A DNA stretch of 56,120 nt, filler included, from Platydemus manokwari (lineage: Eukaryota): the NCBI GenBank assembly GCA_037951405.1. It is 5 parts of 5 records of this genome, joined end to end, with 100 filler letters (N's around TTAATTAATTAA, not from the genome) between each part and the next. Parts side by side here need not be neighbours in the genome. Positions count along the whole stretch, not along the records: positions 32,774 to 45,281 come from JBBMOY010107787.1; 4 more parts are not named here. One strand, given 5' to 3'. The translations under genes and the position numbers were made by a program. A model generated the notes under the pieces. The model did no database searches. It was given only the letters and a program-made list of their open reading frames with translations, and was not told the DNA's origin. Shown in pieces: positions 1 to 45,281 of the stretch. How positions within the stretch are numbered: position 1 is the stretch's first letter; every line of letters starts with the position of its first letter.

Positions 1-3000
1 GTATGTAAGATTAATTAAAATAATATTAAATTAGATTACCTTTGGAAGTATAATTATCCCCATAACCTTTAATAATTCTATTATCTATCAGATATGATTA
101 TAATTCTTAAACAATTAACCGACCAAAACTTAACCTAACTTTAAATCAGGATTTTCATGCCTAAATTTACAATTGGACTTCGAGCATGACCCTTTCAGAA
201 AATATCTACACAATTCCATTTGATGAAAGTCTACATTATCATTTTTAACTAACATTAATCATTATATTAAATTTAAAATATATAAATTATTACATATATT
301 AAAACAATGGTTAAAAACAAAATTTTTAAACAAAAATAATAATACGATTTATTTGACAAATATTCAATAACTGTTGATATTTTTAACAATGTGACATACA
401 ATCCAGGTATTCAAATTAACTTCTTGAATGATAGTCCAACATAATCTTTTAAAAATTTTATTGGTAAGATATTTCAGTGCACTTTTTGAAAGAAATCTTT
501 GAGGAATACAATCGTACGTTAGAACCAGTTTCGATAGCCTTTCTCGATATTCGAAGCTCGTGCCTCATCAACTGAATATTAGTGATGTGGCACCACCGCC
601 AAACAGGGGTTCTTCTTAACATGAAGGATGGATCAGACCTACAAGTTAGAGAACATTCACAACTTCAGGGACATGAGTAACTGCCTTCGAGCTATGCAAA
701 AACAGAAACAGTGGTCTAACTCAACAGGCACTGGCACAAACTAGAATAACCGAAGTCAGTATCATTCCCGAGCTGTTATACAAATCAGGGGCAAATACAC
801 CACTCACTTTGTTCTTCGACCCTACAAACTTTGACGTAAATCTTTATGATCTATATTTTTTGATCGTTAAGGCTTCCTATCCTACCTTAATGATCTCAAG
901 ACCTAATTTAAGATCTAAATTCAGTCTACATTTGTTTCTACTTGTAGGTTTTGAACTAACGCTGAATATTTAGAATAATAATTCTAATTTCAAATTTATA
1001 CCCTAAAATCGAATAAGCAATGTTAGCAACCTGAATGACACTCAACGAGTAAAGCCAATTAAAAATTCTCAGTGGAATCTGCACCCAACAGATAAAACAT
1101 AGGTAGAAATAACAACTATAAAGGATTTGTCATCAAAATGATCGCACAAAAGAATTGCAACAGATATAAAGTTACCAAAAGACAGGAAGTTGCTGGTGAG
1201 ATTCGGCTTCTTTTATAAGTTTGTCTTGTGTGTTTGCTTGCTGCTTTGTAGCTTTACCTTTTTTATTTACTGGAAACATATACATGCTAGTTAATTTCTT
1301 CTAACTCTAGTTTCATTGTCATGTGTGTTCCCCGTTTATCGAAATTTTGGAGGTTTATGATTGACGCGTACGTTCCTCGAGGTTATTTATATCGAACATT
1401 ATTTTTGAAGATTATTTTGAAGATTATTTCGAGATCTCAATAGGTATCCTACTTATTTTTGCTACAAACTCAACATACCTCTAAGTGGCAAAATTAAATC
1501 TTATTTCAAACAATGACCAATTTAATTCACTCAACATAATCAAATTCGTACAATCTCGAAGAATGTTCTAATTTTTCTGACTTATATGAACACCCAAAAT
1601 TTATCTAAATTAAATTATTTAATTTATTATTTAGAATAGCAAAAATTGTTATAATTTTAGTCTTGATAAAAACAATTATTTATGGTTACTTCTTTGAATG
1701 AGCCCGTTGTTTGTTACGTAATAATTTTGTGTAACTAAAAACTTCTCTGCAATTGAATTTTGTTTAAAGAGAATATGAATTTTATCGCAATTTCGATATT
1801 TTATTTCTTAACGATTTATGAAATGAAAGGGAGTACAAACAATAATTAGATGAATTATCAAAAACTGACAAGAAATCAGTTTGGAAAATCAACCAGGATA
1901 AATATCACTCTATATAAAGCGAGCAAACGAAACAAGTCATCACTAAATAAAAATTGCATGGAGTCAGAATATAAATTATATATTTAGTAATATTTGTTCC
2001 GCGTATAAAACTTATTGATTATCTGGCAATAATCGCTGTTTTCCAAGGAGTTGATTTCAAGTTAAAATCCAGCTTTTAAATAAATTCAATAATAATAATA
2101 TTGTCTACTCGCATTTTTTTAACCTATAAATTCGTCATCATTAGAAGTTCTTTTTGCTGTTTTAATAGCAAGTAGTTTGAATATTTATTTTGTTTTTTCC
2201 TGTACCATTTTTATATTAAGTACACACGGTGACATTATTTTTTGCTTGATTATTATTTGTAAATTAAAATAAGTTCCTCATTAGATTTGCTCATATGTCA
2301 TACATCAGTATTTTACTAAAGGTGGCTCATCACTGTCTAGTCCTAACTTATTATTCTTCATACTAGCATTGAAATACGTGTAACTCTAATAATAGAACTA
2401 ATAATAAATACAATTCATAAAACATAATTTTTATTATGTTTATTATTTTCATATTTCTATTTTGCGCATTTAGATACTTTAAATGACAGCTGTTTGTCTG
2501 AATATGCGCAGTGTCTGATTTTGGTTTACTTTATCATTTATGCCACGAGCTTGGGAACGGTCAGTTTCTGAGTCGAATTCCAATATATCAAAGGTTTGCG
2601 AATACTTCCCACACAAATATTATTTAAAATATATGTTGGGATTTTGGAAAATAACAGTTATTTATTCGGAGATATGACTCCATATATATAAATATGTGCA
2701 TGAATCTTTTTATCTTTAGTTTTGGTATTATGTGAATATCTCACTTATGTATCGATGTATAATATTAACAGTTTTTATTTTCAATAATTTTTTATTTTTA
2801 ATTCTTCTGGACAATTCTTTAAGGTTGAATAACGGTTAATATAGCAAGTAAAATAATATGGAAATAACCTTAAAGGTTATTTATTATTAATAAAATAATC
2901 CAATTTTCAAGATAATAAAAACCCGAATAAAAAACCCGTATTTAAAACCCATCAACCAAAATATAATTACAAATACCACTCGCAGATAATTAAATACCCT

Positions 3001-29115: not shown

Positions 29116-30168
29116 AAGATCGAAATTATAACAAGCTCAATATGTTTGCTTGACCTATTGAAGAATAATTTAAATTGATCAAAAGGTAACAAACAAAAAG
29201 TAAAGGATTAATAAATAAGAGTTGAAGATTTTTTCGTCATTGAGCAAGTAAATTATAAAACATGTTTTTAAATTTTTATTTATATCAACACAACAGAAGT
29301 TCGATATAGGAACCTTCACTTATTTGTCCATTTACTCTTGACATTGAGTTTTATTTTGTTTACATAAGTTCAGTTGAGATATTATTTTAACAATTTGTAA
29401 GGATGGCAAATATTACTATATAATTTTGTGCATTGATATCATTATCCAATAAAGGAATTTTGAAAATTAATTTCAGTCTTGGGGTCCTTGCTAATTTTCA
29501 GTAAATTGCATTTCGACCTACTTTTTTCATTTTTTCAAAAAATCAAATTTTAGGAGGTTTTTAAGCTCTGATTTATTTAATATTTGATTTCAGACTACTT
29601 AAATTTTTCTTAAATACTTAAATAAAAAATTCAAAATGTTTTTAAAGAATATAAATAAATAAACTGCATAGATTTTTTTAATGCACTCAATAAATTCAAA
29701 ATTTCATTTTAAAACCCTTTTTTAAACTTTAGACTAGAAATCCTTTGACCTATTTTTGTAATAATGAATTTTTGTGTATTAGAAAATTTTATGAATTGCG
29801 ATGTTTGATTTATTCGTCTAATATTAGTTAAAATCTCACTTTCTAGGATGTCTAAAATGGACAAAACGTAATTTAAAAGCCAAATTCCCATTTTTAACTA
29901 CAACATATCTAAATTGAAATTTTACTTAATTACAAATATGTTAAAAAATATCATTACTCTTTTTTATAAAATAAATGTAAACATTTAAAATATCATTTTG
30001 ATTTGATTATTCAGATTGATGGAAAAGTTGTACAAAATTTATAGAAAATGTGATAAAAATCTACTAAAGTAGTTAAAAGTAGATTGAGAGTGTCATCTTA
30101 ATATTAGAAATATTATAAAACGGAAATATTGAATTCATAGTTAATTTGTGATCAATTAAAATTATCAA

Positions 30169-30864
30169 ATGTATCGACTACCACAAGTAAATCCAAATTT
30201 GTTTTATAAAGAATCTTGCCGAAAAGATATACTTCGATCAGAACTCCAAAATCATACTCAACCAAATAACATATGGGTTGTCATCTTTGATGGAGTGTAC
30301 GATTTAACAGAACTCAGTATAAAACACAAAGGTGATCCTTTCATGTGGCCTATTCTCCAAGCGGCAGGAAAGGATATTTCTCATTGGTTTGATATTAATA
30401 CAGGTGATTTACGGACTTACATTGATCCAATAACTAATACAAAACACCACGCAACACCAAATGGACGATTTATTCATGTTGAACCACCATTTATCACTAC
30501 AGAATGGGCTAATGACTTTGGTACTCCATGGTGGAAAGATATCAAGCGTTACTTTATTGGAAAAATTTCAAAAAGAACTTGTTTTGTAAGATTTTTCAAT
30601 ACATTAACTGGGCATAAACATCAATTTGAAACAAGTGCTGATGATACAATATTGGAAATGATTAGGAAACATATTTATTTATTTAATTCTCATACAGCAT
30701 CTTATACTTGTAAGTATGAACAAAGAATTTTAAATCTAGAAAATACACTTGAAGAAAATAATATTCCAATTGAAACCGAAGAAATGGAAGATGTTGGTCT
30801 TGATCCAGTGGAATGGCCAATAGAATTATTGCTTTATTTTAATGATGATTTAACAGTAGCATAA
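30169..30864 (+). CDS. CYB5D1: Cytochrome b5 domain-containing protein 1 (ciliary), intronless
   Basis: 231-aa ORF with HTQPNNIWVVIFDGVYDLT, AGKDISHWFD..TGDLRTYIDP, TPNGRFIHV..EWANDFGTPWW, NSHTASYTCKY, TLEENNI and terminal LLYFNDDLTVA, matching the recalled CYB5D1 family along its length. Confidence 0.93.
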   Translation: MYRLPQVNPNLFYKESCRKDILRSELQNHTQPNNIWVVIFDGVYDLTELSIKHKGDPFMWPILQAAGKDISHWFDINTGDLRTYIDPITNTKHHATPNGRFIHVEPPFITTEWANDFGTPWWKDIKRYFIGKISKRTCFVRFFNTLTGHKHQFETSADDTILEMIRKHIYLFNSHTASYTCKYEQRILNLENTLEENNIPIETEEMEDVGLDPVEWPIELLLYFNDDLTVA

Positions 30865-39307: not shown

Positions 39308-39415
39308 ATTGGCTCATGGAATAATAGCGAAGAAATGAAACATTTTAAATGGACAAAGCGGTTTAATTTATTTATAAATAGTAATGAAATTTCATGAAAA
39401 TTTCACTCATCATTC
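39308..39415 (+). promoter_or_regulatory. Candidate core promoter of the DEG/ENaC gene
   Basis: Reverse CCAAT (ATTGG, 39308), TATAAATA at 39373-39380 and Inr-like TCACTC at 39403, ~30 nt after the TATA and just before the ATG. Weak in AT-rich DNA. Confidence 0.33.
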
Positions 39416-39421
39416 TGTCAA

Positions 39422-40912
39422 ATGATCAATTTAATTCAGCGAAGCACCATTCATGGTATTAATCACATGTACAGTTCTACTAGTAGAATCTCGAAATTAT
39501 TCTGGCTAGTTCTACTTTTATCTGGTATTGTCGGTATCGGTGTAACGACAAGTTTTGTGATTATTAAATATTTATCGAAACCAATCTCAATGCGATATAC
39601 TTGGGATTATGAATCGTTCATTTGGCCAAATTTAGTATTCTGTGTTCCTCAATCGCCCATAAAAATTGATGGGGATTCTCCTGCTTCTCAATATTGGAAT
39701 CAAACAATTAGTAAATATAAAGAATCTATTCATTATTTACATCATCAATTTAAAGACCAACAACAATCATTTAAAGATCACATTGAAAAAGCTACCTTTA
39801 TGTCGAGTATTGAACCAATAAAATTACAAACAAATAATTATACTAATCTGATCAGGTCTATAAGTTATGATAGATCATATTCTACTGTGCGATTTTATCA
39901 CGATTCGAAAAATTTCGAATATAACACATTCCCAGATTGGGATCCATTATTTACAAGTTCTTGGTATCCAATGCCTTATAATATTCCTTGTCACATATTT
40001 CACTTGGATAAATCCAAACAAGTTAAAACAGCTGATATACAAAGACTTGAATTTCATTTGATATTGAATTATGATAGCTATAAACTTTTTAATGGCATCA
40101 ATGAAGGTAGATCGGTACATTTGTATCTCAATTATAAAAATGAAATTTCAGAAAGACCAATTATTCTGACACCTGGTTTCAAAACCGAAATAAGAATAAC
40201 TGAAAGTCGATATTTATATAATGGGATACAAAGAAAATGTAGAAATGACCTGTTTACAGTTCAACTCTATGATGCTCTTTTTCATTCGACGGATACATTT
40301 GAAGGAAATGTTGATTTATGTATATCGATAGAAAGTCAGAAGCTGTACGTTCGTATGTGTGGATGTTACAATCCATTTTTACCAGTCTATAAAAATGAAA
40401 GTGGATTACCAAGAATTTGTTTGAATGGATCAATATTTACAAAATTCGATATGACGAAAAATTTAAATTGCCTTTTGAATATATCTAATATATTTGGGAA
40501 AAGATATTTCCGTACCTGCCGTAAATACAGAACAATGAAATGTAATAACGTTAAATTTAAAACAGATGTTAGAAACACTATGATTGTTGAATTATGGTCG
40601 AATTCAGTCAGTGACAGTCAACGTCAATTTTTAAGAGATATCCATGATAGTCATTTTGGAAATATGAAAAACAATCAAACTTTTCTTCAACTTTTGCGAG
40701 ATAATTTGATTATCCTCAACTTGGAAAGAGAATCCGTATATGGTGATTCTCACAAAGAAGAACTAGATTATGGTTTATCGGAATTATTATCAGGCATTGG
40801 TGGATTGATGGGATTGTGGATGGGAGTGAGTGTGGTCGGATTATTTGAAATTGTCCAATATTCTTACTATATTATTAAATCTTGTTCACGCAACAAAATT
40901 TATCAAAAGTGA
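39422..40912 (+). CDS. DEG/ENaC (amiloride-sensitive sodium channel family) subunit, intronless, 496 aa
   Basis: STIHG pre-TM1 motif, TM1 FWLVLLLSGIVGIGVTTSFVIIKYL, WPNLVFC (FPxVTxC equivalent), Cys-rich thumb (MCGC), TM2 LLSGIGGLMGLWMGVSVVGLFEIV with GxS selectivity filter. Confidence 0.94.
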   Translation: MINLIQRSTIHGINHMYSSTSRISKLFWLVLLLSGIVGIGVTTSFVIIKYLSKPISMRYTWDYESFIWPNLVFCVPQSPIKIDGDSPASQYWNQTISKYKESIHYLHHQFKDQQQSFKDHIEKATFMSSIEPIKLQTNNYTNLIRSISYDRSYSTVRFYHDSKNFEYNTFPDWDPLFTSSWYPMPYNIPCHIFHLDKSKQVKTADIQRLEFHLILNYDSYKLFNGINEGRSVHLYLNYKNEISERPIILTPGFKTEIRITESRYLYNGIQRKCRNDLFTVQLYDALFHSTDTFEGNVDLCISIESQKLYVRMCGCYNPFLPVYKNESGLPRICLNGSIFTKFDMTKNLNCLLNISNIFGKRYFRTCRKYRTMKCNNVKFKTDVRNTMIVELWSNSVSDSQRQFLRDIHDSHFGNMKNNQTFLQLLRDNLIILNLERESVYGDSHKEELDYGLSELLSGIGGLMGLWMGVSVVGLFEIVQYSYYIIKSCSRNKIYQK

Positions 40913-43269
40913 GGCAATGAAATTACTAAAGAAATTTGAATTGTCATCAGACTTGACTTTATTTATCTTCGTAAAAAATTTGTGATGAAAACTTATTTTG
41001 TTTGACAAAATAATATCTCGGGAAATTCATAAAATTTACAATTTATTCATCGTTCCTAGAAATTTGAGATTCGTCATTGTGATAATTTTTTGCTTATTTA
41101 CATTATATACTAAATTTTGAACATATTTAGAAAATCCTCATCTCTAAATTTATATTTAACGATATTTGTTGTTTATTCCATGTTGACCTTTTTGGAATCT
41201 AAATAGACGTGATAGAAAAATTCAAATAAATATTTTTAAACTTTATTGTTTTATTTTATATATTCATATCTTATAATATATCGCAAATTTACTCATATTC
41301 CAATTTTAGTTATCGATTTATGTCAAATGGGATGATGTAATATTTATGTGTGATTCGTTTTATAGACATGTGTTTTGCCAGATAGAGATCTTTGTTTTAT
41401 ACTGAATCTGATTGGTCAGTCATTGTATCTATATGACTGTGTAAATATGTGTGCGTAGAGTATGTTGGAGTTATATTGAGATAGACGAAATCGAATTAAA
41501 ATGTTGTTTATACGATAACAATTAAGACAGCTATTTACAATTTTTAGAATGATATATATGATGAAGGCTCCGATTTTATTCCCAATAGAATCTGTTCCTG
41601 TCAGATATGAAGGAAGTGTTCTAACTTTATATCACTGATCATAATTTAAATATGAATGAATAGTCAGGGTTATTATTAACTATTCTAAAAAATATGATAA
41701 GTAAATATTCAAAAAATTAATAACTCAACAATGTTGACAATCAGACCCTTCAGTAAAAGGATTCAGGTGTGTCCAACTAGGTGAAGAGACGTACCTGTAA
41801 TAAAAAAAGAAAGCGGGAGATGAAGTAGTGACCTTAGCAATTGAGAACAATTACATAGTTATCGAAATAGCTGTGGGCGCATAATAGTAACAAATACATT
41901 TACTCATCATGTGATCGATTGAGTTAAAATAATTTTCGTAGGATAAATATTTCTAGAAATTTTGCTTTGTAAATAGATGCCTTGGATGAATATATTCACT
42001 GGTAATTTCTTCGCTAAAATGAGTAGACAATTTAACAGATTATTGCGAGCTAACGGAATTTTTTACGCTCATATAGTGATATTGTAGGTCGCATGCGTCA
42101 TTTTGGTGTGTAAATTTTTGGACTCTCTTTGTTGCTAATTTTAACAACTCTACACTATTTTAACAATGACGTATTTACTAAAAATAGATTTTTGAAATAA
42201 ATTTTTTAACCTTAGTTTTCGTTTTGGTTACCTTGAGGTCAGTTAAACAAAAAAAATTGTTATGGTAAAACAAAATTTTTTGTTTTATTTATTTTAAAAT
42301 ATTTTATGTGATATTTTTTTTTAATTTAATTTTTCTTTTATCAGTTTTATGTAAAAAATTGTAAATTATATTTTATTTTTCTTTTGAATATTTTTTAATT
42401 CCATATACAGTTTTGTACGATTGGGTTTAATTTTTAGATTAAAATTTTATAATTTTATTTTCACTTAATGTTTAATATTTTCTTTGACTAAAAACGTATG
42501 TCCTAATTTAAGGGTATATTGGATTCTACAAGCATGTGAATAAACGATCAAAATAACTCTACGGAGACCATGACATAACCATCAAACTTTGGCAGGGTAT
42601 ACACCAATAACAGGCCATGAACAGCGAGATACGCTATAAAAACGTAAATAAAAAAATCTCCGAGAATAACTGTCAGTATTTTATGTTGGCTAAGCAGTGT
42701 CTGTTATAATTTTTTATATGATTATTCTTACCACAGTATTTTGTGTTTCTGTCTCTGTTTCCATTTTGATTCGGTTGTGACTTGATACTCATTTTAAGGT
42801 TAATTTCCTTAATAAATCTTTTTCTTTAAAGACTTCATTTAATAGCTCACATTCATCCCCACTTTTTGATTATCAATGATATTTATACTCTTGATAGATT
42901 GTCTTCCACTTATTGACTTGTTTCCAATAATCGCCTAACATTAAGTCCCGAAAAATCCGCAAACAACATTGATATACTTTAAAATCCCTATCCGCAAATT
43001 CTATTATCACTGAATTTCTTTAATAATCATAATAATAAATTTTAAGAAAAATACTTAAAGTGCATTAAGATAATTGATCAAAAAGATAGAACAATAAATG
43101 GGTTGGCAAAGTAAATCAACAAAATAAAGCAAAAATTTTAAACTTACTGATGCACAAAAGTGGAAATCCAAACACGTGAAAGAAATACAAAAAATATTCA
43201 GTATCATTGACGGACATGATCACAAAAAAGTCAAGTCAATAGCAATAAATAATAAAAGTCAGCCAATGA

Positions 43270-43589: not shown

Positions 43590-44037
43590 ACCCCATATTT
43601 ACTGGAAAAATCTTCAATGGGGAAATAATATAATGAGGAACACTAGCTGGAAAACTATAAATAATATTCGATTTTATTAAAGCATATTTACCGTTTGTGT
43701 TTTGTCCAGATACAAAATTTCCGACTGCTATTTAACATACAACGTTTACTAAGGTAAGCTCAGATATATTTGTTGAGTTCCAAAATGTGTACAATTTATT
43801 TTAATCAAATTCTAAAACCGAACCTAAAATAATTAATTTTATAATTCCTTTTGTAATTAGCTTACATTTTAAACTATCCTTATCAGGGTCTATTTTTACA
43901 TTATATATTCGGTTTCATTAGTATCAAGTTGTGTAATTCCATTAATTATATACTCACCAACATTTCGCATTCTTTCTTTACTATTAGATTTTATCATTGT
44001 GCTATATCTTTTAGAAATAATATGAATTAACTTCCAT
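43590..44037 (-). pseudogene. Polinton/adintovirus-like minor capsid (penton) relic
   Basis: Broken frames give NVKIDPDKDSLKCKLITKG and ILGSVLEFD*NKLYTFWNSTNISELTLVNVVC*IAVGNFVSGQNTNG..SNIIYSFPASVPHYI, matching the recalled penton pattern LKC..SLLGF..VNI..I.V.CDI..GSY.NG....IY.F.P.VP.GY.I. Confidence 0.6.
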
Positions 44038-44061
44038 TTCTAATTATCACTAATATAGCAA

Positions 44062-44445
44062 TTAGTCGTATGGTGAAAAATAAAGCCCATCATCTTTAAT
44101 CTATTTTAGAGATTGTAACTTTTTATATCCAGTATTTTTAAAAATAACAATAGAGATTTAAATAAATACCAGCTTCTTTACCACCATTGTTTTCTTGTTT
44201 CAATTCACCTTTTGGCTTTAAATCTGCTTATTCTTCCTTTACTTTCTCAGCTTCTAAATTGGTTTCAACTATCTCCGCGTCTGTGTTCTTAGCTTGCTTT
44301 GCTGGAGTTACTTTAAATGGAATTCCACTAACAATTCCTGCTGCTCCACCTAAATTTGCCATAATTAGTGATAATGGAGCTAATAACGGAAAAACACCAC
44401 CAGATTTTTGTTTCTTATAGTCTTCTTTATTTTCTATAAATTTAT
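44062..44445 (-). pseudogene. Polinton/adintovirus-like GG-motif (protease-cleaved, membrane-active-like) virion protein relic
   Basis: KKQKSGGVFPLLAPLSLIMANLGGAAGIVSGI..AKQAKN..EE*..AGIYLNL and DGLYFSPYD*. Resembles the GGFLPL..LAGGAAGIAKAV..G.GLYL.PY proteins of Polinton/adintovirus genomes. Contains an internal stop and frameshifts. Confidence 0.6.
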
Positions 44446-44469
44446 TAATTATTTTTAGTAAAGCTACTT

Positions 44470-45265
44470 CAGGTTCTTTGAAGCCAATTATAATATATCT
44501 TAGTCTAATTTTTAATAAAGCTACTCAGGGACATCGATGAGATTTGAAAGTCTATTTAAATAATTCTCTGCATTTGGAGTTAAGTCAGGCATACAAAATT
44601 CCAATGATTTAACAGTTAATTTTCCCTCTATATTTGCCCCATAAAATATCTTCTTATCATCTATTTTTCTATTTAAGGTGAATTTAATAATCATCAATAA
44701 TAATGGTCTATTGAACTTCTCTAAAAATCCAAATATGTGTTTTAATGAAAATATTCCTGTGTACAAATTATAAAAGGCTTTTCTTCTTCTGAATTCCTTA
44801 TTGTCTTTATATTTATCTTCATTAGTTTTATCTGAAATACATGATGTTAATTCACCAGTTCTTTCATCAGATTGTATTAATAATATAAAATTTAACATAC
44901 TATACATTTCTCCAACATTTGTAATATTTTCAATTTCATGAGTTCCTAATGTTAAACTCGTGGAGTAAAATAAATTAGGAAAGAAATTAGTTTCTAAATT
45001 AATGTCATGGTTTTCTTCTACACCAGCAGCATTTTTGTCTTTTCAAATCCAATTTCAATTTCATATCTCAAGAAACTATTACAAATATCTACAGGATTTA
45101 AAGCTTACTGGGATTCAAAAATAATACCTTTGGGTTCTTTTAAATTTTATGCTGTAGTTGATAATGGGTTAATAATATATAAATCTTATTTTTTAATTTG
45201 ATGTTTAAATTTTCAATTCAATAATTCCAGATTTGTCAGATTTTTAGAGCAAAAAAGTAATTTCA
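44470..45265 (-). pseudogene. Polinton/adintovirus-like double-jelly-roll major capsid protein relic
   Basis: INPLSTTA*NLKEPKGIIFESQ*..NSFLRYEIEI / INLETNFFPNLFYSTSLTLGTHEIENITNVGEMYSMLNFI..SLKHIFGFLEKFNRPL..KFTLNRKIDDKKIF..GKLTVKSLEFCMPDLTP, then LRYIIIGFK. These follow the recalled MCP motifs in order (NN...LF....L.G.EIE...G; PLKHIFGF..Y.K; L.L.R..D; GK......W.MP.V.P; PRYII.GFQ). Stops, frameshifts and deletions are present. Confidence 0.75.
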
Positions 45266-45281
45266 TTTCTCTAAAACAAAT

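Follow-up and report, generated by a model that had tools for sequence, protein, structure and literature searches.

A decayed capsid-gene copy from a multi-copy Polinton of Platydemus manokwari

The stretch of DNA analyzed here (the window; 56,120 nucleotides, filler included, from Platydemus manokwari assembly GCA_037951405.1) carries, at 43625-45212 on the minus strand, three broken, intronless and co-oriented genes with shifting frames, those of a major capsid protein, a GG protein and a penton protein. We read them as a dead, deleted capsid-gene copy of a multi-copy Polinton (Maverick) element whose active ancestors likely built icosahedral particles and likely made a precursor of phospholipase A2 (PLA2) and integrase that their own protease would cut, and we give this reading a probability of roughly 80%.

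State of the window copy

The remnant closes the fourth part of the window (record JBBMOY010107787.1, 32774-45281, 27% G+C), and its surviving pieces are collected in Table 1. Against naturally open frames from sister copies in the same genome it scores 200 bits for the capsid, 92 bits for the GG protein and 78 bits for the penton, compared with a top score of 23.1 bits in 30 shuffles of the region. These scores bear out an earlier note, which had described three co-oriented, intronless, decayed minus-strand frames at this place. The 128-aa reading frame singled out there is the part from the first ATG of the longest open frame, which runs for 173 aa from stop to stop (44521-45042, minus). The same note called the frames decayed, which is correct but incomplete, as at least three internal deletions accompany the stops (found in all three genes) and the several frameshifts. 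A short deletion near 44565 removed ~17 codons of the capsid gene, and penton residues ~33-112 are deleted near 43915-43965. The deletion at about 44430-44450 took the last ~120 codons of the capsid together with the first ~36 of the GG protein, and because of it the 98-aa frame at 44228-44524 is a capsid/GG chimera. In the larger GG piece, KSGG still stands before a hydrophobic segment rich in Ala and Gly, after which come a basic helix-like segment and a GxYL motif. The window copy cannot make a capsid.

Table 1. Surviving pieces of the Polinton capsid genes, in window coordinates
Feature	Position	Strand	Description
Major capsid gene, 5' piece	45051..45212	-	sister residues 12-65; 3 stops, then frameshift; tblastn 68.5% to L024 capsid
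Major capsid gene, longest open frame	44524..45042	-	173 aa, residues 70-267; FCMP motif inside; 55.6% to L024 capsid
Major capsid gene, last surviving piece	44429..44524	-	residues 275-306; different frame; fused by deletion to GG gene
GG (protein-X-like) gene	44150..44449	-	residues 37-131; one stop; 53% to L007 GG protein
GG gene, 3' piece	44068..44139	-	residues 141-170; frameshifted, one stop; tblastn E 0.003 within region
Penton gene, 5' piece	43965..44033	-	residues 9-32; tblastn E 0.004 within region; blastn matches to sisters
Penton gene, middle piece	43625..43914	-	residues ~113-210; 2 stops; 44-49% to L054/L056 pentons

In AT-rich DNA, two frames free of stops over 173 and 98 codons might lead one to suppose that the host has domesticated the capsid frame or the chimera as a gene of its own. 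We consider this highly improbable: such frame lengths are common among broken sisters, stops, frameshifts and deletions lie on all sides, and in the capsid tree described below no other frame of the subclade has a branch as long as that of the window frame (0.25, versus 0.07-0.19 for the others). The copy has since undergone neutral decay, and any function is unlikely.

In an assembly as fragmented as this one, with 1.99 million contigs, an assembler could have misjoined a free virus or a contaminant contig to host DNA. That explanation is barely credible here, since the copy is broken, unlike a live virus, and continues without a gap into a flank with an ENaC/ASC channel gene. In addition, a public-run contig matching 42179-43673 (depth 12.8) crosses the boundary between flank and penton without difference, although that run may be the source of the assembly itself and hence is not independent support. 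Further contigs of the run match 43913-44426 and 44409-44873, again without difference; together the contigs span the flank-penton boundary and the 44565 deletion, while the 44430-44450 junction is not formally bridged. Read depth is ~15 in the flank and climbs to ~19,800 across the capsid gene, a depth that is not to be taken as a copy number.

Several other features of the window were recorded. The host gene nearest the remnant is the channel gene, an intronless 504-aa frame for an ENaC/ASC amiloride-sensitive channel at 39398-40912 on the plus strand (PF00858, 131 bits). Left of the remnant, 41750-42480 belongs to another repeated element outside the Polinton gene set (read depth up to about 1070, 70% match to L067). 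A different stretch of higher G+C (32%) contains a single open frame of 2558 aa with a sacsin domain (PF25794) at 12877-20553 on the minus strand, and a 234-aa frame with a cytochrome b5-like domain lies at 30160-30864 on the plus strand.

Capsid, penton and GG protein in sister copies

Pfam found nothing relevant in the window's own frames, and their identity was therefore tested through the sister copies. A naturally open sister capsid of 428 aa (L024:155-1441) matches PF21738 at 62.9 bits, well over the cut-off of 27. Its model, built from a 23-row alignment (pLDDT 82.7, pTM 0.86), folds as a double jelly roll, which is the opposite of the absence of jelly-roll similarity that the earlier note had named as evidence against its reading. 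In the PDB the model matches the major capsids of mavirus, Sputnik, PBCV-1 and an iridovirus (TM 0.55-0.62, E 5e-14 to 3e-13, and 5e-14 to 1e-13 for the best three, those of mavirus, Sputnik and PBCV-1), at identities of only 8-14% and with no Polinton capsid among the matches shown. Searched by sequence, the capsid had no match in the PDB. The best BFVD rows are 11-14% identical and include a MELD virus and an adintovirus entry; no close adintovirus hexon was found in that database, where unlisted families could still be present. Outside the genome 26 relatives of the capsid were found, the full-length ones 43-49% identical except two at 30-31%, and the capsid profile reaches 2453 clusters.

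The penton was examined in the same way, using the model of a naturally open sister (L054, pLDDT 77). Its top six PDB rows are viral: a PBCV-1 chain (Z 11.4, rmsd 3.1, 121 aligned) and another (Z 11.0), the pentons of mavirus (Z 11.2, rmsd 7.7, 228 aligned), Sputnik (Z 10.8, rmsd 7.4, 229 aligned) and an aviadenovirus (Z 9.5, rmsd 8.6, 233 aligned), and EhV-201 (Z 9.1). The first non-viral row stands at Z 6.6. BFVD matches comprise a MELD-virus penton, adomavirus LO5 and minor capsid proteins, and Pfam found no penton family in the penton frames. In the sisters the penton gene lies one gene from the capsid gene, a placement also described in passages of PMC4028283. Pfam, the folds and the linked genes of the sister copies thus uphold the identification of a double-jelly-roll major capsid and a penton of Polinton type.

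The GG protein is about 170 aa long and basic, and G52, G53, P56, L57 and P62 are invariant in all nine rows aligned, three of them outside relatives. Five of 11 scanned GG proteins match Pfam Adeno_PX (E 9e-4 to 0.017), with a best score of 19.5 bits against a cut-off of 25, and none of the 11 matches a PLA2 or gasdermin family. The GG-protein profile finds chain E of PDB 9lr9, 'PX', at E 0.68, ranked under three unrelated rows. Because the Adeno_PX and 9lr9 scores are weak, a pX-like nature of the GG protein is likely but short of proven, and the earlier assignment to the GG-cleaved proteins is retained with that reserve. The stretch after the glycine pair is hydrophobic and not clearly amphipathic (hydrophobic moment low, 0.13-0.24). 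Adenovirus protein X, the mu precursor, likewise has GG followed by a hydrophobic PL-xx-ALP stretch (PF05829, weak matches), whereas the P. manokwari protein has extra N- and C-terminal parts.

Gene order, copy number and selection

Gene maps were drawn for 27 contigs of this genome and two outside ones. In the recurring order, integrase and PLA2 occupy one strand, and the opposite strand carries the ATPase, two or three unassigned genes, capsid, GG, penton and protease; a fibre-like gene, a small gene and a membrane gene come next, and then pPolB, facing them. Contig L237 links protease, penton, GG, capsid, ATPase, PLA2 and integrase, L256 links capsid to integrase, L055 spans pPolB through capsid, and L250 also carries linked element genes. 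Three contigs close to the window copy (C249783, C1199377 and C660985) also carry PLA2. All six core genes, which a Polinton carries in one element of 15-20 kb, occur together on none of the 27 mapped contigs of this fragmented assembly, and the element map is one of overlapping broken copies, several of them rearranged. Inversions and large deletions were seen in L025, L064, L241-L245 and L253, with integrase facing pPolB in some. The outside relatives L135 and L137 have the same genes in other orders, as have the further metagenome relatives L136 and L138, and more than one native gene order is possible. L135 has an extra Cys-rich gene after the capsid, which we take to be nuclease-like, and in L137 and L140 a different short glycine-motif gene adjoins the capsid.

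The window holds no detectable element genes besides capsid, GG and penton, and similarity to the sisters stops at about 43625-43646, within the penton and short of its 3' end. It had been supposed that the contig end hides the remaining genes. This can apply to the ATPase and integrase only; protease and polymerase are expected at lower coordinates yet are absent there. Because the sisters carry both downstream of the penton, where the window lacks them, protease and polymerase have been lost from this copy.

The assembly search proposed in the earlier note, for pPolB, rve integrase, adenain and terminal inverted repeats, succeeded for polymerase and integrase, gave a putative protease and found no repeats. 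Integrases score 32.9 bits (L064) and 39 bits (L151) against a cut-off of 32.6, and are linked to the element on L237, L239, L240 and L256. Fragments of pPolB from this genome match PF03175 below cut-off (E 2.7e-4 and 0.011), an outside homologue (L137) reaches 41.3 bits against 25.8, and pPolB is linked to the element on L055, L060 and L068. The ATPase of L078 matches PF04665 at 31.9 bits (cut-off 22.8), and ATPase homologues (62-81%) are linked to the capsid on L237, L238, L239, L249, L250 and L256; with these matches and linkages in sister contigs, a family without a packaging ATPase was rejected. Two more A32-type ATPases were seen at L074:338-1120 and L075:118-891, the latter of 50% G+C, unlike the host, and perhaps foreign.

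The gene after the penton shows HW..FDP..Q..C motifs, which we take as the Ulp1/adenain protease pattern. Pfam gave no protease match in three of three frames of this gene from the P. manokwari genome, and a 48% homologue in L137 matches PF00770 weakly (E 0.047). Beyond the protease, L053:1403-2458 and 334-1110 (minus) are two genes without a telling Pfam match, one with two hydrophobic helices between coiled coils and one with a repeat; the repeat-bearing gene we take to be phage-tail-fibre-like, and the two-helix membrane gene downstream of the protease may correspond to the 'cupiennin' gene of Beta adintoviruses. In adintoviruses PolB bears an OTU domain at its N-terminus. The polymerase of the P. 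manokwari family has a Cys/His pair (DNKCF..NHYV) that may fit vOTU, with no OTU Pfam domain on the pPolB of L183 or L241. pPolB also starts with a C2H2 finger and contains an insert resembling endonuclease VII (L060:3024-3572, L183:814-2046), and portions of PMC5803895 give such an endonuclease VII stretch for Spodoptera Mavericks as well. Neither terminal inverted repeats nor 6-bp target duplications were found in the sister contigs, which are short. One candidate repeat (L122/L123 versus L184) was discarded because similarity continues beyond the supposed end, and because only one polymerase-side copy has it and lacks the polymerase start.

This gene set bears on whether the remnant derives from some other double-jelly-roll group, such as a virophage, a Polinton-like virus or a giant-virus fragment, rather than from a Polinton. 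The structural matches would permit it, the best being virophage and giant-virus capsids at such low identity, with no close adintovirus hexon. Such an origin is nevertheless improbable: pPolB, rve integrase, A32 ATPase, putative protease, pX-like gene and PLA2 together make up the Polinton set, the gene block is compact, and no giant-virus genes lie on the mapped contigs. Mavirus and Sputnik offer the closest solved capsid and penton folds, but their capsids are 11-12% identical to that of the family, and these virophages parasitise giant viruses in protists and have a lipase of another family. According to passages of PMC3671162, mavirus pairs pPolB with an rve integrase, as the P. manokwari family does.

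The Polinton family is abundant in this genome. A DNA search returned 1440 candidates, of which 40 were scored; these yielded 84 matches, and the best of them share 73-84% identity across the capsid gene. With the 173-aa frame as protein query there were 1159 candidates, and the 150 scored yielded 151 matches, mostly with stops and with a few frames open over most or all of the gene. Queries with penton, ATPase, integrase, PLA2 and pPolB gave 150-161 matches each among 147-150 scored. The family copy counts are lower bounds, at least 150 matches per gene. The capsid phylogeny that the earlier note had called for was made with FastTree from 90 rows and 407 columns, comprising 20 frames of this genome with at least 160 aligned residues and 70 proteins from outside it, 380-500 aa long (the first 60 ids without exception, then every third). 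Eighteen of the 20 frames, that of the window among them, group in a single clade (support 1.0) that divides into two subclades and whose sister group the tree does not resolve. The tree holds no named reference. The other two (L059 and L073) fall next to an outside protein as a second lineage (support 0.99). That second Polinton lineage, to which L077 also belongs, has a capsid about 46% identical and the order penton-ATPase-capsid.

Median pairwise dN/dS is 0.36 for the capsid (45 pairs), 0.35 for the penton (10), 0.47 for the GG protein (10) and 0.36 for the PLA2-integrase (10), in frames of AT-rich DNA that were picked for being open. These values indicate that the family's genes evolved under purifying selection. 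The ratio is about 0.2-0.3 between subclades and higher within them, the pattern expected from selection during activity and decay after insertion.

The earlier note had taken the LEFCMP sequence of the window capsid as a sign of an undescribed lineage. This inference stands on weak ground, as the FCMP site has Cys in 13 of 15 rows from this genome and the nearest outside capsids (43-49% identical) mostly have LWIP or similar, LWIP being the commonest outside form (19 of 70). FCMP is a substitution of the host family only. The PLA2-integrase fusion, located outside the window, gives better reason to regard the family as a distinct variant.

The PLA2-integrase fusion and its relation to known Polintons

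Natural open frames covering the PLA2 part number 42 in this genome, and half of them (21, on 20 contigs) continue in frame into the integrase; the others end at a stop or contig end, or were not followed further. In the metagenome relative L135, a single 441-aa open reading frame contains a Zn finger, GG, PLA2 (PF08398, 46.9 bits), GG and integrase (PF00665, 49.4 bits). Both the PLA2-integrase gene and pPolB start with a Zn finger. Outside homologues of the fusion amount to 965 among 7993 scored proteins; among the best 120 of the 965, query included, 100 match both families, 19 the integrase only and one the PLA2 only, in a ranking that favours two-domain proteins because the query has both domains. 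In these best-listed homologues the catalytic H, D, Y and D of PLA2 are kept in 106-108 of 120 rows and the D, D and E of the integrase in 116-120. The PLA2 frames of this genome keep HDxDY with an insertion between loop and catalytic helix, and score 17-18 bits against a Pfam cut-off of 23.9. Adintovirus integrases have a chromodomain at the C-terminus. None was detected on the integrases of L135, L025 and L064, and chromodomain PF00385 is present on part of the outside PLA2-integrase homologues.

Of 90 parsed linkers between the two domains, 80 contain GG or GxG, versus nine of 291 control windows. About half of the homologue rows have an aligned G-G/S-D before PLA2. GxG is also the conserved end of the PLA2 domain, and its conservation may have a cause other than cleavage. 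The adenovirus protease consensus has Met, Leu or Ile four residues before the cut; unlike it, the fusion often has Lys four residues before the putative cut.

By analogy with Polintons, virophages and adenovirus, capsid trimers and pentons would form the shell, and the A32-like ATPase would pack a linear genome copied by pPolB. The putative Ulp1/adenain-type protease would then mature the particle by cutting at glycine pairs. Such cuts would release PLA2 and the hydrophobic pX-like peptide to act in membrane entry, and would release an integrase delivered inside the particle to act in insertion. An earlier proposal, in a section of PMC4642659, holds that virions probably contain the Polinton lipases.

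The same element might instead have lived solely as an intracellular transposon, its fusion never cut or packaged and its capsid genes relics or employed in another role. No particles or free genomes have been seen, two pattern scans of IMG/VR gave no relative, and the glycine motifs may be structural. We nonetheless judge this unlikely, given the low ratios between subclades for capsid, penton and GG protein, the PLA2 active-site residues kept across outside homologues, and the recurrence of GG motifs in two unrelated element genes.

The nearest described elements are the Group 2 Maverick-Polintons or Alpha adintoviruses (Polintoviricetes), which share with the family the capsid, penton, A32 ATPase, protease (putative in the family), pPolB, rve integrase, parvovirus-type PLA2 and pX-like domain. 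The family probably belongs to Group 2, an assignment of its capsid made by PF21738 and sequence motifs rather than by a tree with named references. Portions of PMC8502044 describe PLA2 as characteristic of Alpha virion modules, and portions of bioRxiv 10.64898/2026.06.19.733378 as common in group 2. In Group 2/Alpha elements PLA2 is fused to pX (PLA2X) or has its own gene (passages of PMC8502044, bioRxiv 10.1101/2024.03.25.586562, bioRxiv 10.64898/2026.06.19.733378, PMC11161782, 10.1101/2023.08.22.554363, PMC11296320 and PMC7805220), whereas in P. manokwari the integrase is the fusion partner of PLA2, and pX is a separate gene. Beta adintoviruses (Group 1 Mavericks) have the six core genes and a pX-like domain as well, but carry GasderminX (PMC8502044, in part), where the P. 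manokwari family has PLA2 and no gasdermin match. Parvovirus VP1 resembles the family in the loop and HD/Y/D residues of its PLA2 (PF08398), which is tied there to a capsid protein and here to the integrase. The family is thus a Polinton variant, recognizable by a pX-like gene without a fusion partner and by an integrase fused to PLA2.

The fusion was not found in the parts of the Polinton and adintovirus literature searched, though figures, supplements, Repbase or subscription journals may show it, and none of the terms searched occurs in PMC11131425. Specialists may know the architecture, because Pfam marks both domains. The part of the supplement of PMC8502044 (Starrett 2021) that was searched gave no match for four flatworm names or three capsid motifs, and an expansion of Mavericks in Dugesia planarians is reported in portions of 10.64898/2025.12.11.693146. 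A bolder and quite tentative proposal is that these elements form a widespread, unnamed clade of animal Polintons in which the integrase is made as a virion polyprotein (Zn finger-GG-PLA2-GxG-integrase) and cut by the protease, PLA2 and integrase being packed together, as retroviruses pack Pol. The P. manokwari genome would then have undergone a large invasion by this clade through particles, and the second lineage would have entered on its own.

The window copy itself is an ordinary fossil, one among many. Its family bears on whether animal Polintons form particles and by what route the integrase reaches an incoming genome. A PLA2-integrase in which protease-type motifs flank the lipase suggests a testable answer, in which the integrase would ride in the particle, and the fusion serves as a marker by which this clade can be told from the PLA2X and GasderminX types.
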